DNA of 62,894 nucleotides, counting the filler, from an uncultured Methanosarcinales archaeon (GTDB lineage Archaea > Nanobdellota > Nanobdellia > Woesearchaeales > GW2011-AR9), in NCBI GenBank assembly GCA_964434885.1. It is 7 parts of 7 records of this genome, joined end to end, with 100 filler letters (N's around TTAATTAATTAA, not from the genome) between each part and the next. Parts side by side here need not be neighbours in the genome. Positions count along the whole stretch, not along the records: positions 10,569 to 20,337 come from CAYSWQ010000035.1; 6 more parts are not named here. One strand, given 5' to 3'. The position numbers and the translations under genes are program-made. The notes under the pieces were generated by a model that ran no database searches, had not been told where the DNA came from, and was given only the letters and a program-made list of their open reading frames with translations. Of this stretch, positions 1 through 20,337 are shown piece after piece; the first letter of the stretch is position 1, and each line of letters starts with the position of its first letter.

Positions 1-57
1 ATTATGACCACCAAAAGTCATAATACTAACCGGAACTAAAAACGTGATAGTACAATC
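1..57 (-). ncRNA. candidate TATA-driven structured RNA, family C
   Basis: Minus strand TTGTACTATCACGTTTTTAG...AGT-ATTATGAC-TTTTGGTG-GTCATAAT; cut by window edge. Confidence 0.5.
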
Positions 58-163
58 AAACAAAAAAACCACAATCTTTATAAACCCCCTCAACTTCTAA
101 AAAGTAAAGATTTGTCGACGATAAAAATAATTGGTGATAATTAAATTTTAATCAAAATTTTAG

Positions 164-2479
<2,316 letters not shown>

Positions 2480-2480
<1 letters not shown>

Positions 2481-2572
2481 AAACAACGGAGGAAAATAAA
2501 ATGCCAGGTAAAGAAAATTGGAAATTTTCGGACCTGTCATTTTAAAACAACGGAGGAAAATAAAATGCCAGG
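2480..2572 (+). repeat. 29-bp direct repeat of RBS plus start region
   Basis: AAAACAACGGAGGAAAATAAAATGCCAGG at 2480-2508 and 2544-2572. Confidence 0.9.
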
Positions 2573-2801: not shown

Positions 2802-2804
2802 TTT

Positions 2805-3320: not shown

Positions 3321-3364
3321 TTTAATTCAAAAGAATAATTGAAAATATAAATATCTTTGGGTTA

Positions 3365-3460
3365 ATAATATGTCTGCCCTGCCAAATGAGGTGCATTTTT
3401 TACTCGATGGTTTAGCCGCAAGAGTAAAAAATAACCGTGCCGTGCAGGCTGATATATTAC
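3365..3460 (+). ncRNA. candidate structured element, family A, copy 1
   Basis: Long nested hairpin; core TGCCAAATGAGGTGCATTTT...AAAATAACCGTGCCGTGCA matches the minus-strand element at 49186-49276. Confidence 0.55.
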
Positions 3461-3506
3461 TTACATTTTGAGTTAATTATTTAAACCCCAAAAATTTACT
3501 CAACCC

Positions 3507-4439
3507 ATGAAAAGAGGTAAAAAAATTTATGTAGTTGGCCACCTTAATCCCGATACAGATTCCGTCTGTTCTGCTATTGCCTATGCTCATTTCTTAAGAG
3601 AAAGACATAAACACAACATTATCGCATGTCGAGCTGGTTCATTAAATTCAGAAACTAAATTTGTTTTAAAGAAATTTAAAGAAAAAACACCTCAGTTACT
3701 AAAAGATGCAACTAATAAAAATATCATTATCTTAGATCATAACGAAATACACCAAGCAGTAAAAAACATTAGAGATGCTAATATTTTAGAGATCATTGAT
3801 CACCACCGAATTGGTGATGTCGAAACCATCCACCCAATTCCCTTTGAAAACGAACCACGAGGTTCTACTTCTTCAATCATCGCCGACCGATTTAGCTGGT
3901 TTAGAATTCCAATTTCCAGAAGATATGCAGGATTAATTCTCTCTGCTATCCTCTCAGATACTTTATTATTAAAAAGTCCCACCACTACTCCAAAAGATCG
4001 TTCTTGGGCTAGAAAACTAGCTAAAATAGCTAAAGTCGATATTCAAAAATATGGTAAAGAAATGTTAAGATCTGGTTGTGATATAAAAAACCATAGTGTC
4101 AACAAATTAATCTTAACTGATTTTAAAACATATCAATCACATGGCCACAAAGTAGGTATTGCTCAGATTCCAGTAATTGGTTTTGGAGACATAATGAAAA
4201 GAAAAACCAAACTTCTACATGAATTAAAAAGATTAAAGAAAAAAGGTAATTATCATAGTTTGTTTGCTTTAGTTACTGATGTCTTAGCTGCCAATAGTTA
4301 TCTATTTTATGAAGCAAATGAAAAAGAAGTCAAAAAGAAATTTAGGAAAAAAGTAGTAGAACCTGGAATTATGTACTTACCAAAAGTTGTTTCTCGAAAA
4401 AAACAAATCCAACACAAAGTTTTAGAGATGTTAAGATGA
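3507..4439 (+). CDS. ppaC: manganese-dependent inorganic pyrophosphatase (family II, DHH)
   Basis: GHLNPDTDS, LDHNE, IIDHH, ILSDTL, SRKKQ motifs. Confidence 0.9.
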   Translation: MKRGKKIYVVGHLNPDTDSVCSAIAYAHFLRERHKHNIIACRAGSLNSETKFVLKKFKEKTPQLLKDATNKNIIILDHNEIHQAVKNIRDANILEIIDHHRIGDVETIHPIPFENEPRGSTSSIIADRFSWFRIPISRRYAGLILSAILSDTLLLKSPTTTPKDRSWARKLAKIAKVDIQKYGKEMLRSGCDIKNHSVNKLILTDFKTYQSHGHKVGIAQIPVIGFGDIMKRKTKLLHELKRLKKKGNYHSLFALVTDVLAANSYLFYEANEKEVKKKFRKKVVEPGIMYLPKVVSRKKQIQHKVLEMLR

Positions 4440-4930
4440 AAATAGAAATCAGATATCAAAAAGTTTCTGATGCTAAAAGATTTTACGAAATCTTGAACAA
4501 TCCCAATTTTATCTATTTTTCAGCCAAGCCAAAATCTGTAGAAGATGAAAAGAAATGGTTAAAAGAAAACACAATAAAAAGAAAAAAGAACTTAGAATAT
4601 AATTTTTCAATCCTCCATAAAAATCAAGTAATTGGTGGCGCTGGAATCAAAATAGATCAACATCAAAATCATATCGGAGAAATTGGTTATTTTGTTGATG
4701 AACAATATTGGGGAAAGAGAATAGCCACTAAAACAGTTAAACTATTAGAAAAATATATCCAAACAAACACAAAAATAAAAAGAATTGAAATTCGTATGTA
4801 TCCCAAAAACAAAGGTAGTGAAAAAGTAGCCATCAAAAACAACTACAAAAAAGAAGGGTTACTAAAAAAAGCATTTAATCATAATGGTAAATTATTAGAT
4901 GCTTATTTGTATGCTAAAATTATAAGTTAA
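4436..4930 (+). CDS. GNAT N-acetyltransferase, RimJ/RimL family
   Basis: GEIGYFV..QYWGKRIA, N.GS.KV, Y.KEGLL motifs. Confidence 0.85.
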   Translation: MKIEIRYQKVSDAKRFYEILNNPNFIYFSAKPKSVEDEKKWLKENTIKRKKNLEYNFSILHKNQVIGGAGIKIDQHQNHIGEIGYFVDEQYWGKRIATKTVKLLEKYIQTNTKIKRIEIRMYPKNKGSEKVAIKNNYKKEGLLKKAFNHNGKLLDAYLYAKIIS

Positions 4931-4996
4931 ATTTCTAAAATAATCACCACTATAAAATTACAAAAAACTTATAAAGTAATCACTAATTTAGTAGAT

Positions 4997-5932
4997 ATGT
5001 CTTCAGAAAAAGATATTAATGAATTAGAATCAAAAATCTCAGAATTAGAAGCTCAAGCTAAAAAACTAAAACAACAAAGAGATTCTGCATTACACCATTA
5101 TTTTGATTCCAGCAACAAACTAGATGCACCCCTCCAAGCTAATGAATACCTAAACAGTGTTGGATTTCAAGATGCAATATCTTTTGATCCAACCGCCCCA
5201 GTAATGCAACAAGGAGAAGTGGATTGTGCAAGTAGAATTATAGATATATTAGATAATGAACAGACAGAAGTATTACAAGAAACATCTTCAGAGGAATCAG
5301 CTGCTATTCCATTCCATTATTGTCCACTAGTTAACGAAAATTTAGAAACTAAATTAGATAAAAAAGAAGTAACTTTTGCTTTAGTCAAAGATACTACTGC
5401 TACAGTTAAGAAAAGTCTTTATCAAAATGCCAAAAATTTTGCCACAATTTCAGGTCACGCTATCTTAGGATTACTACCAAATCAAATTCAAAGATATGTA
5501 GCTGGTAAACTTTATGATGATAAATCAAAAGCCCATGAAATTTCATTTCAAAGTAGTCTAGTTGAAGGTACAATTGGTACTGGCATGTTAATTGGAACAG
5601 AATATTCTTTAGTTACCGACTTGTTAACAAATCATACTGGAGGGCCATATGTACTTGCATCCATGGTTGTTTTCGCCTCCGGATTTGCTAGAGCAGCTTT
5701 AGTAAAGTCAGATTACTCCAACAACTCTTCAAATGGAACAGGTCATCCAATACTTGGAGCAATTTATCACCCTTGTCAACTTGCTGTAAAAACAATAACA
5801 CAATATATTCCAAATATAACAAGAGCAATAACTGGTAAGATAACTAACATTTACAGAAACAAAGAACAAGAATTATTAAGTTCAAACGAAACAAAATTAT
5901 TAGAAGAAGAAAATCCTAAATCTTCAAACTAG
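4997..5932 (+). CDS. hypothetical protein, N-terminal coiled coil plus hydrophobic segments
   Basis: 311-aa ORF preceded by TATA-like CTTATAAA; no recognised family. Confidence 0.6.
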   Translation: MSSEKDINELESKISELEAQAKKLKQQRDSALHHYFDSSNKLDAPLQANEYLNSVGFQDAISFDPTAPVMQQGEVDCASRIIDILDNEQTEVLQETSSEESAAIPFHYCPLVNENLETKLDKKEVTFALVKDTTATVKKSLYQNAKNFATISGHAILGLLPNQIQRYVAGKLYDDKSKAHEISFQSSLVEGTIGTGMLIGTEYSLVTDLLTNHTGGPYVLASMVVFASGFARAALVKSDYSNNSSNGTGHPILGAIYHPCQLAVKTITQYIPNITRAITGKITNIYRNKEQELLSSNETKLLEEENPKSSN

Positions 5933-8900
5933 TAACCTTACTAATCCCATGATCATTCATCGAAACACCATAAAGATTATCTGCTTCTGAAATAATTGAA
6001 TCATTATGGCTAATCATCAAATACTGTGCATTACCAGAATATGATCGAATCAACTTAGATAATGTTTCTGAGTTATGTTTGTCCAAAGCCGCATCAATCT
6101 CATCTAAGATGTAAAACGACGCAGGTTGATGTTCTTGGATAGAAAAGATGAATGATAAAGCGGTTAAAGTTTTCTCCCCACCAGATAAAGATTTAATATC
6201 CATAAACCTCTTTCCTGTTAATTTTACTTTAATACTCAAACCATCAGAAAAAGGATCTGAAGGATTATCTAATTCCAAATGAGCTGTTCCTTTTCTAAAT
6301 AAAGTACTAAAAATTCTTTTGAAATTATCATTAACAACATTAAAAGTTTTCAAAAATTGATCTTTCTTCTTAGTCTCAATCTCATTCATCATCATCATGA
6401 TGTCGCCTTTTTCTGTATACAAGCTTTTCTTTTTCTCCATTAATTTCATATATTCTCCTTCTACTTGTTCATAGATTTCTAAGGCTTTCATATTTACAGC
6501 CGACATTTGAGATAACATCACTTCAAACTTAGTAATCTCTTTCTGCAACTCCGCAGTTGATTTATTTTCTAGTAAAGGAGTATCTTTAAATCTTTTAAAT
6601 TCCTCGTTCAAAGCTGCTAATTTAGCTTTAACTTCAGCATTTTTCAAAGAATGTTTATTAGTCTCAATTTCAAAAGTTCTACTACGATCTCTTAATTTTT
6701 CAATCTCTTCTTCTCGTTGAGTTAATTCATTACTCAACTTTTCCCTTTTGTTAAATAATCCTTTATACTTAGAATAAAATTCAACACTTTCTTTCTCTTT
6801 TAATTTTAATTCTTTTTCTTGACTAACAACACTTTCTTTCAATCCACCTAATTCTTCTTTGAAAGACCCTTCTTCTTTTTGATGTTGTTTCAAAATATCC
6901 ATAATTTTTTCCTTCTCAGGTAAAATTAAAGTATTAACTTTCTCATCATCATTCTTAATCTCATTTTTCAAAGCTGCTAAATCTTCTCTAAATTTAGTTT
7001 TAGCTTCTTCAAAAGCACTTAGTTGTGCTAACAATCTTGGATTTTTTAATTGTGAAGCTTTGGTTTTAGTTGATTGTCTAGCTGTTTTTAAAGTAGCCAA
7101 ATCTTTATTGATTAAAACAATATTTTTTTGCATCTGTGATAATTTGCCATCCACTTCATCCAAACCAGATTCTAGTTCTTTTTGTTGATTCTTAGAAACA
7201 TCCAAATCAGAAGTATCTAAATGCAAAACTTTCTCCATAGTAATAATCTCCCCTTCCATTTCAGAACGAGCAGTTCTCAACCTATTAATTTCTTGTTCAT
7301 TTGCTTCTCTTTTTGTTTCAATCGCGGAAACTAAAGACATTGCTTCTCCCAAAGAAGCTTCAATTGCTTTTAACTTATCTTCTTCATCTTTCTCTGAAAA
7401 AGAAGTTGTTGACTTCTGTCTAAATCCTCCTCGCATTACTCCACTACTTTCAGCTAAATCTCCATCCAAAGTAGCCATTCTCACTTTACCAATTCCAATT
7501 TTCCGAGTAGTATCTACATCATCAACAATCAAAGTATCTCCAAAAACAAAAGCAAATGCTTTTTTATAACGCGCATCAAAACTAATCAAATCTAAAGCAA
7601 AACCATGTGCTCCCTGTAATTTAGCATACTTTCTACTATCTCCAGAAATTTCCCTATATCTAATTCGATTTAAAGGAATAAATGAAGCAGAACCAAGTTT
7701 GTTTCTCTTCAAATATTTGATACATTCACCAGCAACTCGATCATCATCTACTACAATAAAATTTGTTTTTGCTCCTGCTGCATTCTCTAAAGCACAAGAA
7801 TATTTTTTATTTACTTTTCCTAATTGGGAAATAACTCCATGAATGCCTTTGATTTTCTTCTTTTGGTCTAAAACACTTTTTACAGCTCGATTATGAAATA
7901 ATTTCTCCTGTACAGATAAATTTCGAGCATTTAACTTAGCTTGTTGTTCTTGTAACTCTGTTGATTTTTTACGAGCATTTCCAATTTGTGCCGCCAAACT
8001 ACTATCTTCATTCAAACACTGATTTAACTTAGAAGTCATATGTTTAAATTCAGACTTTTTATTCTTCAATTCAACAATCTTTCCTTTATTTTCTTTCTCA
8101 ACTTCTTTAACTTTAGCTATTTTCTCATGTAAAGTTTGTAATTGATATTCAATCTTATCTTTCTCTCGAAATAAATTTTGTTGTTCTTGTCTAATCTGTT
8201 GAATCTCTTCTTGTTTCTTTTCAATTAAAATATCTTTGTCTTCAATTTCTTTCTCTAAATCTTCAGAATCTTCTAACTTATGTTTTTGTTTAAAAGCTGC
8301 AATCTTTGCATCAATTTCTTTTTGTTGTGTAGTTTTGGATTCTAATTGTTTATTCAAATTAATTTTTTCTTTTTCAAAATCTTTAATCTTCTTATCATGA
8401 TCTTTCAATTCATTATCAAATTGCATTTTCCTCTGTGCAATTTTTGATAATTCATCTTTCAATGTAGAAATCCTAGTTTTATCTTCTGCTAATTTAACTT
8501 TTAAATCTTCTAGTTTCCGATGAACTTCTATTTGTTGTTTTTCTCCTTTCTGTTCAATTTCTTGATTCAAGGCTTTAATCTGATCTTTACTATTTTGAGT
8601 ACTCTCTTTTATCTTTTCAATCTTATTAGAAATTTCTTCAATTTTATTCTTGTAATCTCCAACTTGAGAATCATATTTCGCTTTTTCTTTATCTAATCCT
8701 TCAATTTGTAAATGTAAATGGGTTGCTTTATTAGAATCAGATTTATCTTTCAAATCTTTAAATTTTAATGCTTGATCTCTATCTTTCTTCAATTCCCTCA
8801 AATAAGTTTTTCGCTCTTTCAAAATTATCTCAGAATTATTCAACTTATCTTCCACCTTATTCATTTCCAATAAAGCCTTGTGTTTCTTTTCTTCATAAAT

Positions 8901-9407
8901 AGATACATCACTAATCCCTTCAATAATCTTTCTTCTCTCAGTATGGGCCATATCTACAAAACGATTAATATCTCCTTGTAAGATAATATTATATCCTTCT
9001 GGATTGATTCTTGCTGTCGCCATCAAATCTAAAATTTCTCCCCGTGTATGTTTCTTTCCATTTATCTTGTAAACACTACTTCCTTTCTTAGAAATCGTTC
9101 TCGACAAAACAATTTCTTTATCTTCTTTTGGAAAAATTTTATTTTTATTACAAAAAGCAATCTCTACTGTCCCTTTACTAGCAGGAGATTTTTTCTTTCC
9201 CCCATTGAAAATTAAATTAGCTGCTTTTTCTGCTCTCATAGATTTAGCTGATAATCTTCCTAAAACAAAACAAATCGCATCACTTACATTACTTTTACCA
9301 GAACCATTTGGACCGAGAATACAATTAAATTTTCCATCAAATAAAACATCTGTTTTATGTGCAAAACTCTTGAAACCATGAATTGAAAGCCTATTTATCT
9401 TAGTCAT
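5916..9407 (-). CDS. smc: chromosome segregation protein SMC
   Basis: Walker A GPNGSGKSN, long coiled coils, hinge GVMRGG, signature LSGGEK, Walker B LDEIDAALD. Confidence 0.96.
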   Translation of the reverse strand: MTKINRLSIHGFKSFAHKTDVLFDGKFNCILGPNGSGKSNVSDAICFVLGRLSAKSMRAEKAANLIFNGGKKKSPASKGTVEIAFCNKNKIFPKEDKEIVLSRTISKKGSSVYKINGKKHTRGEILDLMATARINPEGYNIILQGDINRFVDMAHTERRKIIEGISDVSIYEEKKHKALLEMNKVEDKLNNSEIILKERKTYLRELKKDRDQALKFKDLKDKSDSNKATHLHLQIEGLDKEKAKYDSQVGDYKNKIEEISNKIEKIKESTQNSKDQIKALNQEIEQKGEKQQIEVHRKLEDLKVKLAEDKTRISTLKDELSKIAQRKMQFDNELKDHDKKIKDFEKEKINLNKQLESKTTQQKEIDAKIAAFKQKHKLEDSEDLEKEIEDKDILIEKKQEEIQQIRQEQQNLFREKDKIEYQLQTLHEKIAKVKEVEKENKGKIVELKNKKSEFKHMTSKLNQCLNEDSSLAAQIGNARKKSTELQEQQAKLNARNLSVQEKLFHNRAVKSVLDQKKKIKGIHGVISQLGKVNKKYSCALENAAGAKTNFIVVDDDRVAGECIKYLKRNKLGSASFIPLNRIRYREISGDSRKYAKLQGAHGFALDLISFDARYKKAFAFVFGDTLIVDDVDTTRKIGIGKVRMATLDGDLAESSGVMRGGFRQKSTTSFSEKDEEDKLKAIEASLGEAMSLVSAIETKREANEQEINRLRTARSEMEGEIITMEKVLHLDTSDLDVSKNQQKELESGLDEVDGKLSQMQKNIVLINKDLATLKTARQSTKTKASQLKNPRLLAQLSAFEEAKTKFREDLAALKNEIKNDDEKVNTLILPEKEKIMDILKQHQKEEGSFKEELGGLKESVVSQEKELKLKEKESVEFYSKYKGLFNKREKLSNELTQREEEIEKLRDRSRTFEIETNKHSLKNAEVKAKLAALNEEFKRFKDTPLLENKSTAELQKEITKFEVMLSQMSAVNMKALEIYEQVEGEYMKLMEKKKSLYTEKGDIMMMMNEIETKKKDQFLKTFNVVNDNFKRIFSTLFRKGTAHLELDNPSDPFSDGLSIKVKLTGKRFMDIKSLSGGEKTLTALSFIFSIQEHQPASFYILDEIDAALDKHNSETLSKLIRSYSGNAQYLMISHNDSIISEADNLYGVSMNDHGISKVTSLKI

Positions 9408-9458
9408 TATTCAACCTCTTTAACTTTACACCTAATACTAAAAAGTTTTTGTTTTCAT

Positions 9459-9968
9459 TTATAAATGTTGTTGTTTTGAGGTGTTTATAATCATAACTTG
9501 ATAGAATTCAGTCCGCTCTGCTCTTTCTCTATAATGGTTAAGTGACAATCCTGTACGAGAAATAGGTAATGCTACATTAGTACGATAAATGTCCCCTGTC
9601 GCAGGTGGATTAAGTAATTCTTTTTGAACCTTTTCGGCCAGCAAAAAAGAGTTCATAATTCCTTCAAAAGCATATTCTCTGTCTGGAGCTAAACTAATAC
9701 ACCATCCAAAATCATCCCCCCTATCCAAATTTTTTTTAACTATGTATCTTTCGCCTTCTGAAAGCAATTGTTGAGCTGTCTCTTGATATTCAACAGAATC
9801 CTCACAATAAATACGCATTACTGCCTCTGCAACATTCCAAACATATCTTAAACAATCTTCACTTCCAACTGGTATATCGGACTTACTAGTATACCCTCCA
9901 TACTTTTTCTTTTTCTTTGATAATTCTAATTCATCAAAACACACACGAACTAATCCTTTGAATCCCAT
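9459..9968 (-). CDS. hypothetical protein
   Basis: 169-aa ORF overlapping the nfi 3' end. Confidence 0.5.
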   Translation of the reverse strand: MGFKGLVRVCFDELELSKKKKKYGGYTSKSDIPVGSEDCLRYVWNVAEAVMRIYCEDSVEYQETAQQLLSEGERYIVKKNLDRGDDFGWCISLAPDREYAFEGIMNSFLLAEKVQKELLNPPATGDIYRTNVALPISRTGLSLNHYRERAERTEFYQVMIINTSKQQHL

Positions 9969-10468
9969 TCTATCCCTCCAACAACCTTCTTCACTTTCTT
10001 CTTCGCCACTTTATGCGCAATATGAATTGGTTCTGGTAATTTATGTGGTGGTTTGATAGAATCTTGAACGACTTTTAAACAAGAACCTAATGAAACCATA
10101 TGTCCTGGACTGATATACAAAGGAGAAGCATGTTCTTTTGTTTTAATTTCAAAACCAGCTAATTCTGTTCCCAAGTAAACTTTATTCCCTTCAATTCGAC
10201 CAGCAAAAGATTTCTTCAAAACCCCTATTGTTGGAATATTCAAAGACAATCCCAAATGAGAAGCCAATCCTAACTTCCGAGGATGTAATATTCCTGCCCC
10301 ATCTACTAAAATTATATCTGGTTCATTCTCTAATTTATTAATCGCTTCAATTATCGCTGGCATCTCTCGATAAGCTAAAAAACCAACCACATAAGGCAAA
10401 GGATCAGATAAAACAAAAGACTTCTTTTCTATTAAATTCATTGATGGATATTCACAAACCACTACTGA
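9950..10468 (-). CDS. nfi: endonuclease V (5'-truncated by contig end)
   Basis: PYVVGFLAYRE, DIILVDGAGILHPRKLGLASHLG, PTIGV, KLPEPI. Confidence 0.92.
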   Translation of the reverse strand, partial: SVVVCEYPSMNLIEKKSFVLSDPLPYVVGFLAYREMPAIIEAINKLENEPDIILVDGAGILHPRKLGLASHLGLSLNIPTIGVLKKSFAGRIEGNKVYLGTELAGFEIKTKEHASPLYISPGHMVSLGSCLKVVQDSIKPPHKLPEPIHIAHKVAKKKVKKVVGGIEWDSKD

Positions 10469-10568: not shown

Positions 10569-11323
10569 ACTGGATCAAAGATGTGTTTGATTTCTTCGAA
10601 AGGATCTGCTTTTCCACCTGAAGTAATAGTTTCTCCTGGCATTCCTGCTTTTAATCCACCAATTCCAATGATATTTCCACATGGAACATTGTCTACAATT
10701 TCTTTCTTTGCCCCATTATAGATATATACTTGTTGGATTCGAGAAGGCATATTGGCCATATTGAGGAAAACTTCTTCTCCTTTCTTCATTGTTCCACTAA
10801 ATAAACGACCGGCAGCAATTTCTCCTGCTTGTGGATCAACTACAACCTTAACAATTACAAAAAACATTCTTCCTTCTGGATCACATTTAATTAATGATTT
10901 CCCATCAGTACTTTCCATATCTCCTTGCCACAATCTTGGAATTCTATATTCTTGAGCTTGTTGTGGGTCTGGATGATGTTCAATTGCCATATCCAAAACT
11001 ACTTCGTGAATTGGAGTTTTCTTAGCCAAAGCCTTAACCTTCTCCTTTATTTCATCATCAGTTCCAGTATATGCATCAATAATTTCTTTGAAAGAAACTC
11101 CTTTTTTCTTCATATAATCTAAACTAATTCCCCAATTATGGAAAGCTGAACCAAAAGCCACAGTTCCCGCTTCAATAGAAACTTGCCATTTTTCTTTGTA
11201 TTCTTCTGGAGCTACAGCTTTGATAATTTTGTTGACAGAAGCAATTTGTTTAATGAACCTTTCTTGCATCTGTTCTGGAGTTAATTTCAATTCCTTAATT
11301 AACCGATCTACTTTATTAATAAA
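10569..11323 (-). CDS. fusA: elongation factor EF-2, middle part (3'-truncated by contig end)
   Basis: Resumes at FINKVDRLIKEL; AFGSA, GRLFSGT; archaeal EF-2-like. Confidence 0.9.
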
Positions 11324-11487
11324 TTTATTCCATATATACAAATTATTTTAATGATGATACAGAATTAATAGATTATAGATATATTTGGGATTTTATATGT
11401 AATCCAAAAAGAGATGGAGGTGTTTTGTTTAAAAATGGAATAAATTTATTAATACTTAGAAATCCTAATGATGATATNNNNNNNNNN

Positions 11488-11927
11488 TTATTAATAAAAA
11501 GAACTGGTTTAACTCTCTCTTTCAAAGCTTGTCTTAAAACAGTCTCTGTCTGAGGCATTGCTCCTTCTGAAGCACAAATTAACACAATTGCTCCATCAAC
11601 TGCTCTCATTGCCCGAGTAACGTCTCCTCCAAAATCAACGTGTCCTGGGGTATCAATTAAATTAATTAGAAATTCTTTATCTTCTACATTATGAACCATC
11701 GAAACAGATGCTGAATCAATTGTGATTCCTCTTTCTTGTTCATCTTCATGAAAATCTAATTTACAGGCTTTCCCTGCATCTTCTTCACTCATCATTCCAG
11801 CACCAGCTAGTAAGTTATCAGAAAAAGTAGTTTTTCCGTGATCAATATGTGCACAAACTCCTAGATTTCTAATTCTAGTAGGTTGCTTCATTAATCTTGT
11901 TACTTTATCCACCATTCGTTCTGCCAT
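11488..11927 (-). CDS. fusA: elongation factor EF-2, N-terminal G domain
   Basis: [34 protein letters not shown], then an internal 10-N gap. Confidence 0.93.
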
Positions 11928-12028
11928 TTTATATTTACCTCATATAATTGTTATAGAATTCACGAAATAATGTTCATTTAAATAGGTTTTGGTTAAATTG
12001 TAATTTTTATTACTTAACTAACACTAGA

Positions 12029-12490
12029 TTATTCTCTATCTAGTTGCTTATTGGGCTGATCAGAACCTAAGTTCAAGTAACCAAATTTAACTGCTTCCTC
12101 CAAAAGATCCATTCCAGCCATTAAATAAATTCCACGTAAAGGTAAATCTTTCACTTTTTCGGTATCAGCAATATGATCTCGATGGATTGATTCGCCCCAT
12201 TGGTAAAAAATATTGGCAGCAGTAAAAATAAATGAATCTGCTTCACTCCATTCAACCCCAATATGCTGCCTATACTTAATTATCTCTACCATAGTTTCTA
12301 ATCCAGATTCATCTTCAACTGGTTGATATCCTTCAACTAATTGAGTCATAAATTGTTTTCCTGCATCTGTTAAATAACGTTCTTGACCAGGTTCAACCAA
12401 ACCTTTTTCTTGTAAATTTGAAATTACCTTATCATAAATAATCCTTTCCTGATCTATAATTCCAGTTATCTTTGAAGATTCCATCACCAC
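12029..12490 (-). CDS. hypothetical protein
   Basis: 153-aa ORF; L.EKGLV...YLT..GK resembles a winged-helix wing. Confidence 0.5.
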   Translation of the reverse strand: MVMESSKITGIIDQERIIYDKVISNLQEKGLVEPGQERYLTDAGKQFMTQLVEGYQPVEDESGLETMVEIIKYRQHIGVEWSEADSFIFTAANIFYQWGESIHRDHIADTEKVKDLPLRGIYLMAGMDLLEEAVKFGYLNLGSDQPNKQLDRE

Positions 12491-12567
12491 CAGAAAAAAA
12501 TCAATCAGTTATAAACGTTTTGGTCTTTCAAAGATCAAATAAAAACAACAAATAGAAAAAAATTAAA

Positions 12568-13047
12568 TTAAAAAACATGCTTTTCATGCACTGTCTGATA
12601 AGTATGTAATTCTTTCTCTTCAAACCACAACTTAACTTCTTCTTTAGCTTCAGCCACATTTCCAGAAGCATGGATTAAATTCTTAATTGCAATCCCTTTG
12701 CCATCAGTATATTCATAAGAATGGTGGGCATAATCTCCTCTAATGGTTCCTGGCAAAGCACTTTTTGGCTCTGTTCCACCAACCATCTTCCGTACTAATT
12801 CCACAGCATGCAATCCTTCTAAAACCATTGCTAACACTGGACCTTCTGTAATCATTTTCTCTAATCCAGGATAAAAAGATTTTTCAACATGGGCTGCATA
12901 ATGCTTCTTCGCAAATTCCTCACGAACCCACACCATTTTCATCCCTACAACTTTCAATCCAGCATCTTCAAATCGGCTTAACACTTTTCCCATTAAACCT
13001 CTCTGTACTGCATCTGGTTTTAATAAAACCAATGATCTTTCCATCAT
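12568..13047 (-). CDS. ndk: nucleoside diphosphate kinase
   Basis: KPDAVQRGL, PGTIRGD, NLIHAS. Confidence 0.96.
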   Translation of the reverse strand: MMERSLVLLKPDAVQRGLMGKVLSRFEDAGLKVVGMKMVWVREEFAKKHYAAHVEKSFYPGLEKMITEGPVLAMVLEGLHAVELVRKMVGGTEPKSALPGTIRGDYAHHSYEYTDGKGIAIKNLIHASGNVAEAKEEVKLWFEEKELHTYQTVHEKHVF

Positions 13048-13241
13048 TTTTTACCACCTTCTTTCTTATGTTCTTTACGGTAGGCTTCTGTCCATTTAAC
13101 CTTAAGAGATTTACGACCTAATTTAAGTAGGTTCTTTTCGCATTTCATTGAACAGAAATTATTGATTTTTCCACTAGCATAAGCATAGATTTTTCCAGTT
13201 CCTTTTTTGATTGATGTTCCACAAAAAGTACATTTAGGCAT
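13044..13241 (-). CDS. rpl24e: 50S ribosomal protein L24e
   Basis: MPKCTFCG..GTG..FCSMKCEKN..R...VKWT; true start at ATG 13241. Confidence 0.93.
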   Translation of the reverse strand: MPKCTFCGTSIKKGTGKIYAYASGKINNFCSMKCEKNLLKLGRKSLKVKWTEAYRKEHKKEGGKK

Positions 13242-13242
13242 T

Positions 13243-13533
13243 TTACTTCCTCCGACCGCCTTTTCGACCGCCACCCAATCTCTGAGCTTCCATTTCTGTT
13301 TCTAGTAACATCAAGATATCTCCTAATTTAACTGGACCACGAACATTTCTTCTAAGAGTCTTGTTCTTATCTCGTCCATCTAAAATCTTACATAATACTT
13401 GAGTGATGTCTCCTTTAGTACCTTGTCTAGTGATTATTTCTTTGACTTCAGCGGGAATACCAGCAGGAAATTTAATTTCACCTTCGGTTTTAGTTTCCTC
13501 GCCTTTTTTTCCTTTTTGAAAATTTTTTGCCAT
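13243..13533 (-). CDS. rps28e: 30S ribosomal protein S28e (N-terminally extended)
   Basis: G.ITQV.CKILDGRDK..RRNVRGPVKLGDILML.ETEMEA. Confidence 0.93.
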   Translation of the reverse strand: MAKNFQKGKKGEETKTEGEIKFPAGIPAEVKEIITRQGTKGDITQVLCKILDGRDKNKTLRRNVRGPVKLGDILMLLETEMEAQRLGGGRKGGRRK

Positions 13534-13540
13534 TTTTTAA

Positions 13541-14011
13541 TCACTCTGATTTTTCAGCCGGAGCTTCTTCTTTAGCAGGAGCTTCTTCTTTCTTCTCCTC
13601 AACTTTTTCTTCTTTAGCTGGTTCTTCTTCCTTTTTTTCTTCTTTTGACGCTTCAGATTCTTTCTTCTCTTCTTTAGGTTCTTTTCCAGCCATTAATTCA
13701 GAAACTACTTTTTCAACACCAGCTTTACCTTCTCCTTCTTTAACAATTGCTACTGCCGCAGTACCAACACCTAAACCTGCAGCTGCTCCTAATGCTTCTT
13801 TTGCCTTAACTTCAAAGCAAGCAACATTCTTATCTTGACATAATAATGGCAAGTGCATTACAATTTCTTTAGGATCAACATCACTAGCATATACAACTAA
13901 TTTAGCTTGACCTTTTTCAATTGCTTTAGTGGCTTCATTAGCCCCTTTTCTAATTTTCCCGGAATCCCGAGCTACTTCAATTAATTCCAATACTTTTGAT
14001 TCATCAACCAT
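13541..14011 (-). CDS. rpl7ae: 50S ribosomal protein L7Ae with acidic C-terminal tail
   Basis: GKIRKGANEATKAIEKG.AKLVV.A.DVDP.EIVMHLP; position in the L7Ae-S28e-L24e-ndk operon. Confidence 0.95.
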   Translation of the reverse strand: MVDESKVLELIEVARDSGKIRKGANEATKAIEKGQAKLVVYASDVDPKEIVMHLPLLCQDKNVACFEVKAKEALGAAAGLGVGTAAVAIVKEGEGKAGVEKVVSELMAGKEPKEEKKESEASKEEKKEEEPAKEEKVEEKKEEAPAKEEAPAEKSE

Positions 14012-14050
14012 TTTATTTTTCCCTCGTATAATTTTAACCTAGAATCTAGA

Positions 14051-14077
14051 ACCTCATCAGTAACCTGATTCATAGGT
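14051..14077 (-). promoter_or_regulatory. kink-turn in rpl7ae 5' UTR (L7Ae autoregulation)
   Basis: Minus strand ACC-UAU-GA-AUCAG-guua-CUGAU-GA-GGU: C-stem, 3-nt bulge, tandem G.A pairs, NC stem; TATA TTTATAAA at 14103-14110. Confidence 0.8.
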
Positions 14078-14141
14078 GTTTAATAGCTTAAAATTGGTTT
14101 GTTTTATAAAGTTATCTTAAAAATAAAAGAAAATAAAAAAA

Positions 14142-15971
14142 TCAATTAAACCAACCACTCACTTTCAGAAAGATCTTAGCTAATCCTAACTTAACTTTAT
14201 TCCCTACCGTTACTGCTTTATATGTAATTTTTCCTTCCTCTAATGCTTTCTCCAAAGTTTTCATCGGTTCTTTAGAATTCTGAATTTCTTGCACAGTTTC
14301 TTCCGTAGTATAAACATTCAAGGTCGGCTTATTCAAAACCTTTTGACTCAACCCTTTTAACTTACCTTTCTCAGTTACTGCCCCAAATGAAATCTTTTTC
14401 TTATTCTTCAAAATAATATACACATTAATTCTTTCATCTCCAAATAAAGCTTGAGCAAAAGTAGGCAATTCCACCATCTTCATTTCACTTAGTTGCATTC
14501 CCAATACTTTCTGAATTACTTGCCAATCAACTTCTCCACTAGTAACTTGAACAGATGGCCATCCTCCTGGGCATTGTTTTACCTTATCAAATTTATTTCC
14601 CATTCCAGTAATCTTAGTAGAAGTTCCACAATCAAAATCCACTCCATTTCCAGAACCAACATTAGAATCAACTTTCAATTTATTGTCTGCTCCTTCTAAA
14701 ACAACACCACCTATTTTATTGCCTTTAACATTATTCTTATACAATGCACCAGTACTAGCATGTACTCCAATTCCAATAGAAAAACCTTCAAACTTACAAT
14801 TCTTCAAAGTAATATCTTTCTTCCAATCTAAATAAACCCCATATGTTTTAACTTTACTTTTTTTAAACAATGAAGAAATTGTTTTACCTTTTACACTATG
14901 CCCATTACAATCAATCTCTACTTTGTCCACATTAGGATTAAAACAAACCCAATTTGGCAAACCATCTTTTCCACCAACCATATCACTAGCAGTTAAATCT
15001 TTAGTCAACTTATACGTTTTACCAAGTTGCCATCCTTCTTTAGGTTCACAAGAAGACAACTGAATGTCTTTCTTGAAAGTATAATGTTCACCAGCAATTG
15101 GCCAATTCCCACAAGATTTTACATTGACAAAAATATTCTCTGTCCCATACCGATTGTTCAATGCCTTCTCCTGACAAAAATAATCTTGGTATTTACTATC
15201 AGCAACAAAATTATTTGTTAAATTAACATAATCTGAATTGTCTACAACTACCCCATAATCAAACCCAGTAATTTTACAATTTTTAACTGTCACATCTGAT
15301 CTATCTTTAATTGATATTCCTCTTAACCCATTTACTTTCTTCAAATTCTTAATCCAATTACCTTGACAATCAATAATTACATGATCTTTATTTGGATTTA
15401 AACAAAATGAATTTATTTCGTCTTTCAAAAATAAGTTACCTTTCAAAGTATAAGTTTTCCCTTCTTCCCACTTATCAAAACCACAATCAATTTTATTCAA
15501 AACTTCGGCCTTAATCATTTTAAAATCAGTTTTACAATCATATATTGGAATCCCTAATGCTCCAGCTTGCACATAAAAACAAGTTCCATCATCTGCTGTC
15601 ATCTTATAGCTTTTCTTTTTCAATGAATTAATATCAATATAACTATTCTTAACATTATCATAATACTTCTCAGATTTTATTGAACATACTTTTTTCCCAC
15701 ATGCCCCAAGAAGATAATACTCTCCCCCTTGTTTAGGAGTTAAATAAAACAAAATATAATTCTGACCAGAATATTCAAACAAAGAATAATACTCTTTATC
15801 TACCCCTACAAAAACAGGATGTTTATCATTATAATTCACAGAACCCATTTTACTTTTATCAATATTCTTTAACAATTTTCCTTCAGCTCCTAAAACACTA
15901 GAAACCAATAATAAAGCCACCAACAATAAAATAATTTTTTTCATAAGTATCACCAACAAAAATCCAAACAC
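14142..15971 (-). CDS. secreted/surface protein with right-handed parallel beta-helix repeats
   Basis: Signal peptide MKKIILLLVALLLVSSVLG; two repeats with IDC.G...GI.....VTVKNCKI.GF..G. Confidence 0.7.
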   Translation of the reverse strand: MFGFLLVILMKKIILLLVALLLVSSVLGAEGKLLKNIDKSKMGSVNYNDKHPVFVGVDKEYYSLFEYSGQNYILFYLTPKQGGEYYLLGACGKKVCSIKSEKYYDNVKNSYIDINSLKKKSYKMTADDGTCFYVQAGALGIPIYDCKTDFKMIKAEVLNKIDCGFDKWEEGKTYTLKGNLFLKDEINSFCLNPNKDHVIIDCQGNWIKNLKKVNGLRGISIKDRSDVTVKNCKITGFDYGVVVDNSDYVNLTNNFVADSKYQDYFCQEKALNNRYGTENIFVNVKSCGNWPIAGEHYTFKKDIQLSSCEPKEGWQLGKTYKLTKDLTASDMVGGKDGLPNWVCFNPNVDKVEIDCNGHSVKGKTISSLFKKSKVKTYGVYLDWKKDITLKNCKFEGFSIGIGVHASTGALYKNNVKGNKIGGVVLEGADNKLKVDSNVGSGNGVDFDCGTSTKITGMGNKFDKVKQCPGGWPSVQVTSGEVDWQVIQKVLGMQLSEMKMVELPTFAQALFGDERINVYIILKNKKKISFGAVTEKGKLKGLSQKVLNKPTLNVYTTEETVQEIQNSKEPMKTLEKALEEGKITYKAVTVGNKVKLGLAKIFLKVSGWFN

Positions 15972-15990
15972 TAATTTTATATAAATGTTT

Positions 15991-16521
15991 TCAAGAAACC
16001 AAAGCTCTTAACTCTTTAATGTTCTTATAAATATTATACTTAATCTCTTTAAATTCTTTTAACTTATTCAGAAATTCCCCACCTAAACTTTTTTCCCTAT
16101 CCAAATCAAAAGCAAGTCCTTTAACTTTACAATACAACTTAACTTCTTCCCTAGTCAATGGTTCTAAAATATTAAAAAACTCATTTTTCCCCAAATTCAT
16201 TTTCCCTGAAAACAATTCAGATAAAAATTTCTCCTCAATTTCATCCATTACAACACCAACTACAATTTTATCATACTTCTCACTCTTAAACTTACCCACT
16301 TTATCCTTAATAGAAATATTCAATGGCAAATCCCCAACTGCCGCTTTCAACAAAACCTCTTCCAACTTACCAACAACCAAAACATAATCTCCTTTCTTAA
16401 ATAACTTACGACCAAGATGTTTCTTAACCCTTTTCTCAACATTCCTAACCAAACATTTAGAACAAATATTTCTATCTAAATGAATTAATTTTCCTTTCCC
16501 TGAACAAATATAACATTTCAT
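15991..16521 (-). CDS. degenerate TtcA/Ncs6-like protein
   Basis: N-terminal CxxC...CxxC, VEKRVKK, PL.REEV..YC; no SGGKDS PP-loop. Confidence 0.5.
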   Translation of the reverse strand: MKCYICSGKGKLIHLDRNICSKCLVRNVEKRVKKHLGRKLFKKGDYVLVVGKLEEVLLKAAVGDLPLNISIKDKVGKFKSEKYDKIVVGVVMDEIEEKFLSELFSGKMNLGKNEFFNILEPLTREEVKLYCKVKGLAFDLDREKSLGGEFLNKLKEFKEIKYNIYKNIKELRALVS

Positions 16522-16658
16522 TTTTAACCTTAAATAAAGCAAATTTTTATATATCTTATCTTATTATTTAATTAGTAACTACTTTAAAATACTAAAACCA
16601 CCGAAACATTTATATATATGTACTACTCTTGAGTAAATTACATCTATCACCTCTTTTT

Positions 16659-16688
16659 CCCCAGCAAGGCTTTCGGGTCTTGCAGGGG
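16659..16688. terminator. GC-rich hairpin with UUCG loop
   Basis: CCCC-A-GCAAGGCT-TTCG-GGTCTTGC-A-GGGG just downstream of the Lon-like gene stop. Confidence 0.6.
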
Positions 16689-16695
16689 TTTATAT

Positions 16696-18495
16696 TCATC
16701 TATTCTTTTTTTGTTTCTTTTTCAATATACCAAGCAATGTTTTCTTCTTAGCTTTACGTTGTTTAACTACTTTTCTCGTGTAATAAATAAACATCATCAA
16801 AAAAACACCCATCAAAAAACCAAAAAATAAAAACACAAAATCACGGTACTTTTGTAACCATTTTGTTCCCAAAATCAACTTAGGCTTATCAAAATAAATA
16901 TCTAGTCCACTCATCTCTAAAGCATATTCTAAATATAACAACCCAGAATGTTTATCCTGCTCTGCTAAAGAATTTGCATATTGATAGTAAGAATACCCCA
17001 ATATCGGAAATACATTTTGATTATCAGCAATCACATTCAAAGTTGCTTTATTTTTACTTTTAAAGAAACTATCTAAATTTTCATTACCTAAACCCATTGC
17101 ATTCAAAATCGCATTTGCTTCTGCTTTTGCTTGCACTGCTTTCATCAAACACAAATCATATTCTTTTAACGCCAAATTCTGTTTGGCTTCATTAATCTTA
17201 TCTTGGATATGTTTTATTCTAAACAAACCAAAAATCAAATCCACATATTGATATCTTTCTTCACTTTCAGAAATTTTCTGTATACAAGAAATCTTTAATT
17301 TTTCTGGATTCAAAACAAACTTTTTCCCAGACATCTGAAAAAAATACATCCAAGAAACTGCTGAAAAAAATCTTTCTTGGGCATAAGCTAAAGAATAATA
17401 CTTATTTTTACTTCGAGCAAATTCCTTCACTTCTTTCTTAACATCATTTAAACGATCTTTAACAATCATTAAAGTTTGTAAATCAGAAATTGTGTCAATT
17501 TTTTCCTTCTTCAATTTTTGCTCCAAAAAAAGAACTTTCCGGTTTAACAATTCAATTTCTCGAATTAAATTACCTGTTCCTTTCTTGCCTTTCTTATAAA
17601 TCAATTCTTGAATTAAAATATTTGCTCCAAAACAATAACTAGCAGAAGAATAATAATCTTTATTCCCAATAGCCAAATCAGAATTATTAATCTTTTCTTG
17701 AATTGAATCATACTCACTACTATTAATTTCAAAACGAGCTAATTTCTTCCTTAATTCTAATGTTCTTTCACATAATAATCCATTTAAATCTTTCATAATT
17801 TTAGAATACTCTTCATTAATCTTAACTTCAGTTACTTCTTTTTTTAATTTTTTTCCGGTCAAACTATAAACTAATTCATTCAAATTTCCTACTTCGTCTA
17901 CCTTAAAACTTAAATTATTCTTACTATAATTCACCAAATCAATAGTCTTATTTCCTTGTTTATGTTGACGGCTTCCAGTTGAAATTAATACTTTAGTTAA
18001 CCCATTCTTAGCAGCAGCTTCAATCTTTTCTTTAGTCCCCCCTACTGGCCCTAAAATCCCCCCAGAATTAATTGTTCCAGTTACAGTAACTTTATCATCA
18101 TATTTCAAATTTAATAAAGCAATTGTTGTTAAAGCAGACATTGCTGCTCCAGCTGAAGGTCCTCCTATAATATTTGAATTCGCTTTAATTGTATAAATAA
18201 AATCATAACTTTGACAATTTAACTTAAAATAATTACAAGCAATATCTTTAGCAAACCTGGTAGAAATTTGAGTATCCATTTTTGTTAGTGGAAACGTTTC
18301 CAAAAATACTCTTCCTGAACCTGGTTTTAATTCTACATACAAATCTGCAATACTCCCACCATAAGTCGCATTGTTTGTTTCTTGCACCGCTAACAATTTC
18401 ATTCCATAAACTTTTCCATTATTTGCACTCAAAACAAAACTAGAACAAACTAAACAAACTATCAACAATAAAACCATTTGCCCCTTTTTCATCAT
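16696..18495 (-). CDS. archaeal membrane-anchored Lon-type (S16) serine protease without ATPase domain
   Basis: Signal peptide; GGPSAGAA (catalytic Ser); TGTINSGG.LGPVGG..EK (catalytic Lys); C-terminal TM. Confidence 0.85.
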   Translation of the reverse strand: MMKKGQMVLLLIVCLVCSSFVLSANNGKVYGMKLLAVQETNNATYGGSIADLYVELKPGSGRVFLETFPLTKMDTQISTRFAKDIACNYFKLNCQSYDFIYTIKANSNIIGGPSAGAAMSALTTIALLNLKYDDKVTVTGTINSGGILGPVGGTKEKIEAAAKNGLTKVLISTGSRQHKQGNKTIDLVNYSKNNLSFKVDEVGNLNELVYSLTGKKLKKEVTEVKINEEYSKIMKDLNGLLCERTLELRKKLARFEINSSEYDSIQEKINNSDLAIGNKDYYSSASYCFGANILIQELIYKKGKKGTGNLIREIELLNRKVLFLEQKLKKEKIDTISDLQTLMIVKDRLNDVKKEVKEFARSKNKYYSLAYAQERFFSAVSWMYFFQMSGKKFVLNPEKLKISCIQKISESEERYQYVDLIFGLFRIKHIQDKINEAKQNLALKEYDLCLMKAVQAKAEANAILNAMGLGNENLDSFFKSKNKATLNVIADNQNVFPILGYSYYQYANSLAEQDKHSGLLYLEYALEMSGLDIYFDKPKLILGTKWLQKYRDFVFLFFGFLMGVFLMMFIYYTRKVVKQRKAKKKTLLGILKKKQKKNR

Positions 18496-18545
18496 ATCCT
18501 AAATAAACAAGATTTATTTAAATCTATCTAAAACAAAAAAACAAA

Positions 18546-19109
18546 CTAAATCATCATCCCGTATTTTTTATTCTTAGCAGTCATTTTAATAAAATAGTTT
18601 AGTCTTTTTTTGAAAATTTCAGGACGATCTCTAGCGTTTTCTATCCATTCAATACGAATACGTTTGTAGGGTTCAGAGAATTCATTAAAATTATTCCAAG
18701 TATTTTTATCTTCTTTCAATAAATTAAGGACATCTTCTTTTACAACACATTTTACATTTTTAGAAGATTTTTCAAAGGCATGTTCAACAGCCTTAAGACC
18801 ATGAAGTGTCATCTTCTTATCTTTAATTAGCTTGTGAATTCTCTCCTTATTAAGTTGTGAAAGATTACTTTTTGGTCTTCTTGGAGTGAATCTCTGAGCA
18901 AAACTTTTTTCATCTATACTTTTAACTGTACTGTCTATCCAACCATAACAAAGCGCTTCTTCCACTGCATCATTGTAAGGGATCCTTTTTATGCCAGATG
19001 ATTTTCTATAATAAATAAGCCAAATTTCTTTTTCTTTATTGTAATTTTTAGCTAGCCATATACGCCATTTTTTCCTATCAGCCACATAGAGTGTTTTTCC
19101 CAAGTCCAT
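18546..19109 (-). CDS. YdeI/OmpD-associated family protein
   Basis: WR.WL, AVEEALCYGWIDS, QRFTPRRPKS..S..NKER. Confidence 0.88.
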   Translation of the reverse strand: MDLGKTLYVADRKKWRIWLAKNYNKEKEIWLIYYRKSSGIKRIPYNDAVEEALCYGWIDSTVKSIDEKSFAQRFTPRRPKSNLSQLNKERIHKLIKDKKMTLHGLKAVEHAFEKSSKNVKCVVKEDVLNLLKEDKNTWNNFNEFSEPYKRIRIEWIENARDRPEIFKKRLNYFIKMTAKNKKYGMMI

Positions 19110-19173
19110 ACATTCTCAATTAATGTTTAAATATATAAAAATATCTTATAACCAACCAATAAAAAAACTAATT

Positions 19174-19629
19174 TTATTCAACAATTCTAATCTTATCAAT
19201 ATCTCTAAACCTAACTTGAATCTTCTGTCCAGTTTTATGTTTCTGTAACATTACTTTATTTCCCAACAATAATTTAACCTGGTATCTTTCTCCCTCAAAT
19301 TCTACTTCATCATGTTTTTTTAATCCAATACTTCGGAACAAAACCGTCAACCGATAAACTTCTTTACCTCCCTTTCTCCCCCATAATGAAGAAGTAACAT
19401 TATAATCTCCACCAAACTTAGTTTGCAATCTTTTTCCTAAAGCACGAGTAAATTGATTATCGGCTAAATAAAAATCAACTCCTCCTTTAACTGTCATTGC
19501 TTTAGCTAATGGAATTTCATGTTTGTCAATCTCAGCTCGAACATATTCAATAATCTCATCCGCACAATCTCTTAACTGCAATACTGCTTCAAAATAACTA
19601 GGGTGTTTGCCTTCTAAAGATCTTACCAT
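19174..19629 (-). CDS. NMD3-related protein (short form)
   Basis: YFEAVLQLR, GGVDFY, L.G...GKEVYRLTVLFR. Confidence 0.75.
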   Translation of the reverse strand: MVRSLEGKHPSYFEAVLQLRDCADEIIEYVRAEIDKHEIPLAKAMTVKGGVDFYLADNQFTRALGKRLQTKFGGDYNVTSSLWGRKGGKEVYRLTVLFRSIGLKKHDEVEFEGERYQVKLLLGNKVMLQKHKTGQKIQVRFRDIDKIRIVE

Positions 19630-19670
19630 AAATTAAGAAATACTTGTTCCTTTTTTAACTTTTTTGTAGA

Positions 19671-20234
19671 TTAAAGTTTTTTACAATCATACATACTTAA
19701 ATCAATTTCCAAACTATGTATTGTGTTCAAAGCAGATTCTAATTTCTGAATTGCCAATAAGACCCTTTCCGGCCCATGTTCAGAATAATTCAAACCATCT
19801 CCTGACCACCCAGTTAAATTATCTGGACAAGTCAAATAAAAACCCCTAACTCCTCGTTTTCCAAAAGTTAAAGTACTTTGTTCATCTACCCCTTGATATT
19901 GTCCACCAAACCCAATTGATTCTAATACTCCGAATAACAATGGTCTTCTAGATTCAGATTTAATAAATGGATGAACTGAACTACCAATCACTTTCTCTTC
20001 ATCAAGAGTAGAAGATCTATCTTTACCCATTATAGGAATATCTACTTCAATATACAAGTTATCATCCAAACCATAATTATACTTAAGATACACTGAAGAA
20101 GGCTCCAATTCAACTTGCTCTCTCCTATTAAATTCATTCTGAACACAAGTATATCCTTTTCCTTTTAATCCTAAATGTACTTGTTTCCATTTCTCATCCG
20201 CTTCTTTCAATTCCAATACACTTTTCACTTCCAT
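19671..20234 (-). CDS. hypothetical protein
   Basis: ORF; likely start ATG 20234 downstream of a minus-strand TATA. Confidence 0.5.
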   Translation of the reverse strand: MEVKSVLELKEADEKWKQVHLGLKGKGYTCVQNEFNRREQVELEPSSVYLKYNYGLDDNLYIEVDIPIMGKDRSSTLDEEKVIGSSVHPFIKSESRRPLLFGVLESIGFGGQYQGVDEQSTLTFGKRGVRGFYLTCPDNLTGWSGDGLNYSEHGPERVLLAIQKLESALNTIHSLEIDLSMYDCKKL

Positions 20235-20284
20235 ATCTTTTTTACTCAATTCAAATATATAAGTATTATGACTCAATAATCAAC

Positions 20285-20337
20285 TTGTAGTATCACGTTT
20301 TAAGGGCACAGTATAATACATCTTGGTGATGTATTAT
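20285..20337 (+). ncRNA. candidate TATA-driven structured RNA, family C (second copy at 1-57, minus strand)
   Basis: TTGTAGTATCACGTTTTAAG...AGT-ATAATACATC-TTGGT-GATGTATTAT; cut by contig end. Confidence 0.5.

Follow-up and report, generated by a model that had tools for sequence, protein, structure and literature searches.

What is the short sequence that recurs at the ends of contigs in this archaeal genome, preceded by a TATA box and closed by a hairpin? The window, i.e. the whole stretch of DNA analysed here (62,894 nt), consists of contigs concatenated with spacers made of runs of 44 N and a linker, positions 1-10468 corresponding to contig C34 and positions 10569-20337 to contig C35. The genome is that of a marine archaeon of the Woesearchaeota type and comprises 66 contigs, 1.07 Mb and 31% G+C, with a coding share of ~86% according to crude gene calls. 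The initial annotation of the window had proposed a multicopy, TATA-driven small RNA with a variable insert, resembling a guide or bridge RNA, and had named a mobile-element end as an alternative.

Copies of the repeat and contig ends

Both copies of the repeat in the window were verified at their annotated coordinates, and both are located at real contig ends, reading outward. The hairpin is perfect over 10 bp in the C35 copy (20313-20322 pairing with 20328-20337) and over 8 bp in the C34 copy, with TTGGT in both loops. The TATA-like octamers (20256-20263 and 84-77, respectively) also proved to be placed as annotated, the first G of the repeat lying 24 nt past the octamer end in both copies. 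A genome search for the exact 11-mer of the repeat proposed in the annotation found further copies, nine in all within 1.07 Mb: C22 has one at its start, and the other eight are each 47-49 nt away from the end of a contig. This recurrence at contig ends is far beyond chance. Two subtypes can be distinguished. Subtype A comprises six left ends (C12, C15, C27, C35, C43 and C50), identical at all six contig ends, and subtype B comprises two (C33 and C34), while C22 opens with the same 55 nt as the latter and continues inward. Together with four right ends, these are the eight left ends of the two subtypes found in the genome.

The contigs overlap with the repeat over ~55 nt, made up of 52-54 nt of element and 1-3 common flank bases, four of the subtype-A ends being 2 nt longer. 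We infer that this is the overlap of a de Bruijn assembler with a k of 55. Both contigs do end at the base of the hairpin, as had been remarked, but they stop there because the assembly overlap ends there, and the four longer subtype-A ends run past this point. A short-read assembler breaks at the element because at least eight copies are present in the genome. The proposal of a multicopy element whose repeated downstream part breaks the assembly is supported, and the repeat as first described has an ordinary cause, an insertion sequence fragmenting a metagenome assembly. A 10-N gap within C35 (window positions 11478-11487) is a scaffolding gap and bears no relation to the element.

Two other contig-end features lie outside the window. 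The left end of C13 and the right end of C53 have ~60 nt in common that form a long inverted repeat, which is either another repeat family or a palindrome stopping the assembly. The last 60 nt of C17 contain two tandem units of ~26 nt before the contig end, each with a near-match to the 11-mer.

Identity of the element

Both copies are, with high likelihood, the left end of an IS481-family insertion sequence (IS), of which two subtypes occur, distinguished by a module in the inner part of the inverted repeat; this estimate is a joint one for the whole explanation, including the insertion at promoter edges described below. On this reading, the window contains two truncated elements:

20286..20337, + strand: left end, IS subtype A (element nt 1-52), truncated where C35 ends; it holds the inverted repeat, the leader and the first 2 bases of the transposase start codon.
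1..54, - strand: left end, IS subtype B (element nt 1-54), truncated where C34 begins; same layout as subtype A, with the hairpin at ~1-24.

The whole element, 952 bp in length, is found in C22 (subtype B) and contains one transposase ORF of 288 residues. Pfam analysis of this ORF reports HTH_28 (residues 12-59), rve (residues 130-232) and rve_3 (residues 221-278) domains within a single frame, devoid of the frameshifted orfAB organization of IS3. The best NCBIfam model is NF033577, IS481 family transposase (E 3.6e-59), with 200.6 bits against a curated cut-off of 224, and the second-best is IS3 (104.5 bits). The candidate catalytic residues D138, D194 and E239 are invariant in eight relatives, with K246 seven residues after the glutamate; we take the three acidic residues to be the catalytic triad of the transposase. 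No IS110, Y1 or TnpB model is among the profile matches, the sole gene being the rve DDE transposase. Homologues of the transposase number 1138 at E <= 1e-20, mostly on contigs of ~1 kb, and the named ones are called 'transposase [Candidatus Woesearchaeota archaeon]', related records being labelled Woesearchaeota as well. Only one full transposase gene is present in the genome bin. The interior of subtype A is absent from the bin, and its transposase is known from ~30 C-terminal codons only, C29 carrying the last codons of a homologous transposase at the subtype-A right end. This interior is probably on a short collapsed contig, like most of the 1138 homologues.

The terminal inverted repeats are imperfect, span ~29 bp and start with TGT, with 16/30 matches in subtype A and 18/30 in subtype B. 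The right tip reads ...AGA (TCT on the other strand); several relatives end in ...ACA, which is usual in the IS481 family. The subtype-A right end is found, inverted, at three contig ends (C25, C29 and C45). Left and right ends can be paired by exact 15-bp target duplications in C35/C25, C50/C45, C27/C29 and C34/C22, and a fifth pairing comes from a right flank matching C33 in a contig of a public marine run. Exact 15-bp duplications are also present at 14 further loci of relatives with clean ends. According to the account in PMC10045372, archaeal IS481 members with 15-bp duplications exist and the family range is 2-15 bp. The features concerned are the following:

20304..20310, + strand: the annotated 'variable insert' (element nt 19-25), in fact an inner portion of the inverted repeat that is specific to each subtype; the same 7 nt are found inverted at equal distance from the subtype-A right end.
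20271..20285, no strand: 15-bp target duplication, left copy, of the subtype-A element; the same 15 nt follow the right end at the end of C25.
55..69, no strand: 15-bp target duplication flanking the subtype-B copy; it recurs exactly after the right end inside C22.

These data bear directly on the reading of the repeat as a small TATA-driven RNA family, in which a constant scaffold would carry a variable guide segment as in guide or bridge RNAs. A conserved 5' part followed by a short segment that differs between the two subtypes, hairpin arms that covary, and a TATA box at initiation distance are what such a family would display. However, the sequence runs unbroken into the gene of the HTH and rve DDE transposase, the ATG of which is in the hairpin. 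Bridge RNAs go with IS110-type transposases, and the transposase is of the rve type. The segment taken for a guide is mirrored in the right end of the same subtype, subtype B having its own 7-mer at both element ends, and hence belongs to the interior of the inverted repeat; moreover, it is neither related nor complementary to the 15-bp targets, which all differ and none of which contains the 7-mer. Rfam 15 returns only tRNAs and no family on the element ends, either for the whole window at the gathering threshold or for the nine end-bearing loci at E <= 0.01. A guide or bridge RNA is thus extremely improbable, and the alternative of a mobile-element end proves correct. Two other candidates were discarded: an IS200/IS605-type element (a type with subterminal hairpins that inserts beside a short motif), which the hairpin and a TGTA junction might suggest, is ruled out by the rve transposase and the 15-bp duplications, and a tRNA, rRNA or CRISPR leader is ruled out by the absence of any such feature downstream, which also disposes of the known rRNA/tRNA leader considered in the annotation.

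Two further copies deserve mention. One insertion represented in two collections (L037 and L120) has ATA instead of the transposase ATG and a weaker hairpin, and tblastn reports two in-frame stops (L120); this copy is decaying. In contigs of the public marine run, L001 13155-13196 is a diverged right-end copy with 5 differences in 40 nt, flanked in order by the duplication, a BRE-like 7-mer and a TATA box, which places the promoter on the right-end side.

Host promoters next to the element

The promoter grammar of the host was derived from ~1000 crude gene calls (ATG-only ORFs of at least 80 aa). The order is BRE, TATA box and ATG, and perfect TATA boxes peak 21-22 nt before the ATG, indicating that most genes are leaderless. 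A second class of genes exhibits a TATA-to-ATG distance of 40-45 nt together with a GAGGTGA-type Shine-Dalgarno motif. The BRE, which is A-rich, reads (C/A)(A/G)AAA and is followed by two bases and TTTAWAWA; downstream of the TATA box nothing is conserved. A BRE matrix was built from 128 host promoters.

When the eight left flanks are aligned at element base 1, they have nothing in common except for positions -30 to -16, which read T-W-T-A-T-A-A-A, then n-a-T-T-n-T-K, and are followed by the 15-bp duplication. Read on the opposite strand, the seven conserved bases that separate the TATA box from the duplication constitute a BRE. With the addition of six insertions in other genera, which brings the first set of left flanks to 14, the BRE score in the direction away from the element is positive in 14/14 (mean 2.76; host mean 2.23), against a mean of -3.93 toward the element; the scores at the targets are no stricter than those of ordinary host promoters. 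A divergent leaderless ORF starts 21-26 nt beyond the TATA box at 8/14 sites, a leadered ORF at 41-43 nt in two and a tRNA at 25 nt in one, and at C33 and C34 the 60 nt next to the TATA box contain no gene start. By motif order and strand, the flanking TATA box and BRE make up a host core promoter, serving a gene or tRNA whose transcription leads away from the element. In the window, the predicted features on the host side are:

20264..20270, - strand: host BRE, adjoining the duplication; score 4.1 against -1.3 on the element-serving side.
20256..20263, no strand: host TATA box, 22 nt from element base 1; 7/8 match to TWTAWAWA at the exact offset.
19671..20234, - strand: leaderless host gene, 187 aa from the ATG at 20234; the ATG is 21 nt from the TATA box, and transcription runs away from the element.
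70..84, + strand: host BRE (70-76) and perfect TATA box (77-84) beside the C34 copy; BRE score 2.6 away from the element against -7.9 toward it, the promoter pointing to rising coordinates.
203..2140, + strand: next gene after the C34 promoter, 645 aa; its start is 118 nt away, and the promoter is not assigned to it.

The TATA box is not a part of the element, being located outside the duplication in flanks that are otherwise unrelated, nor is it a forward promoter of the element, which is ruled out by the opposite strand of the adjacent BRE. Of the annotated 'TATA-driven' element, the TATA box at its distance is thus retained; the box belongs to the host, with its BRE on the element side and pointing away, and it might drive the element at most weakly, in the mirrored sense discussed below.

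Among the targets is the promoter of a 115-nt tRNA in C27 (12226-12340, - strand; identical to L028 1780-1894). This tRNA, presumably intron-bearing, is reported by Rfam (41.4 bits) and was missed by ARAGORN.

Position of insertions relative to promoters

The TATA pattern was fixed after the first eight flanks and is the textbook archaeal consensus, the later sets being tests of that pattern. A perfect TWTAWAWA is present at the exact offset in 7/14 of the first left flanks against 0.3% of intergenic positions, and a TATA match of at least 7/8 within +-1 in 12/14 against 2.2%. For an independent set, 401 genomes of the order provided 17 new loci, of which three were too near a contig end and two were repeats of earlier loci, leaving 12. 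The promoter is on the left in 7/12 (TATA match of at least 7/8), on the right in 3/12 (BRE and perfect TATA box adjoining the duplication) and on neither side in 2/12. These 10/12 compare with a null of 16.3% (p 6e-7), and the 7/12 with a perfect match with a null of 2.9% (p 1e-8); the null consists of the intergenic positions of this genome only, on either side, on both strands and within +-1, it is applied to other genomes, and related genomes are not fully independent.

Overall, 29 close-clade sites are available, namely the first 14, L036, L037, L060 and the 12 new loci, with G019 and L036 judged by eye. At 27 of them, distributed over ~20 genomes, the 15-bp duplication adjoins a promoter 7 bp from the TATA box; the other two, L117 and L127, lack a promoter at this spacing. 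At 21 sites the promoter is found next to the transposase start and at six on the far side only, 3/21 start-side sites also scoring at least 7/8 on the right. The transposase 5' end hence faces the promoter ~3-4 times out of 5. In the six right-side cases, all of which were checked, a host ORF starts 22-36 nt beyond the TATA box, at exactly 22 nt in four. C27, one of the three start-side sites that also score on the right and the left TATA box of which is 2 nt off, has a well-placed promoter on its right (C29) and may belong with the far-side group. Of the ten distant relatives with clean ends, L011, L012 and L050 exhibit the same arrangement, L042 and L048 are borderline, and L019, L038, L051, L052 and L063 have a TATA match of at most 6/8 on either side.

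The element family thus inserts with one edge of the duplication in contact with the upstream border of a BRE/TATA promoter, and the insertion leaves intact the core promoter of the host together with the 15 bases immediately upstream of it. An empty-site joint was not seen in contigs of the public DNA runs. The same distribution might in principle arise with no targeting at all, if insertion were random or directed to AT-rich DNA and the survivors were only those just upstream of promoters, in a genome with tiny intergenic regions. Indeed, ~86% of the genome is coding, every observed copy is a survivor, and a TATA-like octamer is found within +-1 of the required place, on either side, at 16% of intergenic positions. 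Selection accounts for an intergenic location, but not for a fixed distance, because the null is itself drawn from intergenic positions only, and against this 16% the duplication adjoins the BRE within +-1 bp at 12/14 and 10/12 sites. Furthermore, the spacing is equal in L011, L012 and L050 in spite of transposases that are only ~40% identical and of different element ends. Insertion without targeting is accordingly very unlikely, and targeting of promoter edges is the reading pursued here.

The transposase leader

Between the left repeat and the ATG is a leader of ~50 nt, and in C22 the transposase ATG is situated within the 3' arm of the hairpin. In the window, the corresponding feature of the C35 copy is:

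20312..20337, + strand: leader hairpin, its arms formed by element nt 27-37 and 43-53 and its loop by nt 38-42, with a Shine-Dalgarno motif GGTGA at 20325-20329 and a paired start codon (20336-20337 plus one base past the contig end).

A hairpin is present just before the ATG in 11/11 element copies from different genomes, with arm sequences that differ and, according to single-sequence folding, with the AUG paired in most. The z-scores of the single-sequence folds range from -0.4 to -6.6, and in only 4/11 copies do as few as 1/200 shuffles or fewer fold as well, so that the hairpin is supported by its recurrence across copies and not by any one fold. RNAalifold returns no common hairpin for a MAFFT alignment of the copies, since the arms do not align in register. 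The loop sequence TTGGT had been regarded as a conserved RNA feature; what recurs there is GGTG(A/G), spanning loop and arm, which is the Shine-Dalgarno motif of the host, in which GAGG, GGTG, AGGT and GTGA are the most enriched tetramers before ATGs. The spacing is also that of the host, GGTG starting 9-12 nt before host ATGs and 10-11 nt before that of the element (11 nt for the motif at 20325). Such a hairpin may damp the translation of the transposase. In one relative, L060, the leader region (837-922) contains a 28-nt insertion that folds into an additional strong stem-loop ahead of the hairpin at the start codon (-32.7 kcal/mol, z -6.6).

In bacteria, hairpins in the transposase leaders of IS10, IS50 and IS3-family members occlude the start site, and they typically fold in read-through transcripts only. 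The likeness resides in a stem-loop that holds both the ribosome-binding site and the start codon of the transposase mRNA. In contrast, the hairpin described here is wholly inside the element and would be present in every transcript.

Transcription and positioning of the element

How the transposase gene might be transcribed is linked to the orientation of the neighbouring promoter. TBP may bind the near-palindromic TATA box both ways, and a minority of complexes on the mirrored box could initiate at element nt 1-3, yielding a transposase mRNA with a ~50-nt leader; this would add to the promoter-edge explanation, and we regard it as a tentative possibility, with the balance somewhat against it. 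The interval of 22 nt between the TATA box and element base 1 equals the modal TATA-to-start distance of the host and would set the two starts ~52 nt apart, although it is also the sum of 7 and 15 and possibly a coincidence. Bidirectional promoters of Pyrococcus furiosus are reported to use a single TATA box for a sense and an antisense start 49-50 nt apart, both in vivo and in vitro (PMC6640164). The left neighbour is transcribed away from the element, which excludes read-through from the left, and inspection by eye of the window subtypes finds no internal TATA-like octamer at a usable distance before the ATG. A mirrored start would also suit the 21 sites at which the transposase 5' end faces the promoter. 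On the other hand, it would give antisense RNA in the six copies with a promoter only at the right end, no BRE is found on the element-serving side (the mean score of -3.93 given above), and in the relatives L005 and L006 a perfect TATA-like octamer can be discerned by eye inside the element, 19 nt upstream of the ATG. Furthermore, no RNA run is listed as containing the element sequence.

Regarding insertion, the transpososome would recognize the promoter, by its DNA sequence or by way of the TFB/TBP bound to it; the ordinary stringency of the target BREs is compatible with either. Of the two strand transfers, one would take place where the BRE begins and one 15 bp upstream of that point, so that the host core promoter would be kept, a safe site in a genome that is ~86% coding. 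A more specific proposal combines both processes: in an archaeal parallel to Ty3/TFIIIB targeting, promoter-bound TFB/TBP would position the element, which would dock on TFB at the BRE and cut at its upstream edge and 15 bp beyond, and in the preferred orientation the mirrored TATA box would give a weak transcript from the first bases of the element, with no promoter of its own being needed. Taken as a whole, this combination is rather unlikely. Structure prediction of the transposase with the TFB core and TBP returned a score of 0.00, in a run without control complexes, which counts neither for nor against such docking.

Relation to known systems and significance

The archaeal IS481 members ISMac4 of Methanosarcina and ISA0963-1 of Archaeoglobus resemble the present element in having a single DDE (rve) transposase, a left TGT, a length of ~1 kb and 15-bp duplications, as judged from their description in PMC10045372. 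They differ in that the description of these elements in that source mentions no target preference, whereas the present element adjoins promoters, and in that the transposase reported here scores under the NCBI IS481 cut-off. IS481 of Bordetella, like most bacterial IS481 elements, shares the transposase family and the overall layout. The Bordetella element uses a short palindromic target. Bacterial members mostly have 6-bp duplications, according to the summary in PMC10045372, in contrast to the 15 bp and the archaeal BRE/TATA promoter edge observed here. The bidirectional TATA boxes of P. furiosus are symmetric, with starts ~50 nt apart, close to the ~51-52 nt between the host ATG and element base 1; the promoters described in PMC6640164 nevertheless have a BRE on both sides, whereas the second BRE is missing here and the distance is measured on the sequence.

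Precise integration next to promoter complexes of the TBP/TFIIB type is a classic of eukaryotic retroelements. The yeast Ty3 integrase is positioned by TFIIIB (TBP and Brf1) at Pol III start sites. The resemblance lies in an integration that is precise to the base pair beside a TBP/TFIIB-type promoter, leaves the gene intact and amounts to a safe site. In contrast, Ty3 is a retroelement that integrates at the start site, whereas the present element is a DNA transposon located at the upstream BRE edge, for which a contact with TFB/TBP is only proposed. In the literature searched, which took in neither ISfinder nor the 2007 review of IS in archaea, insertion of archaeal transposons at promoter edges is nowhere described, and in a survey of archaeal IS from 2026 (PMC13343696) the words 'promoter' and 'TATA' are absent from the main text (0 occurrences). 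The present IS is probably a new IS481-family element, and its target rule was not encountered in that literature.

If the rule holds, it would account for the way in which a 1-Mb, ~86%-coding genome tolerates at least eight copies of the element. It would also offer a means of marking real promoters in uncultured archaea from sequence data only. Finally, a 288-aa protein together with TBP and TFB would constitute a simple system for studying factor-guided transposition, as well as divergent initiation from a symmetric TATA box.
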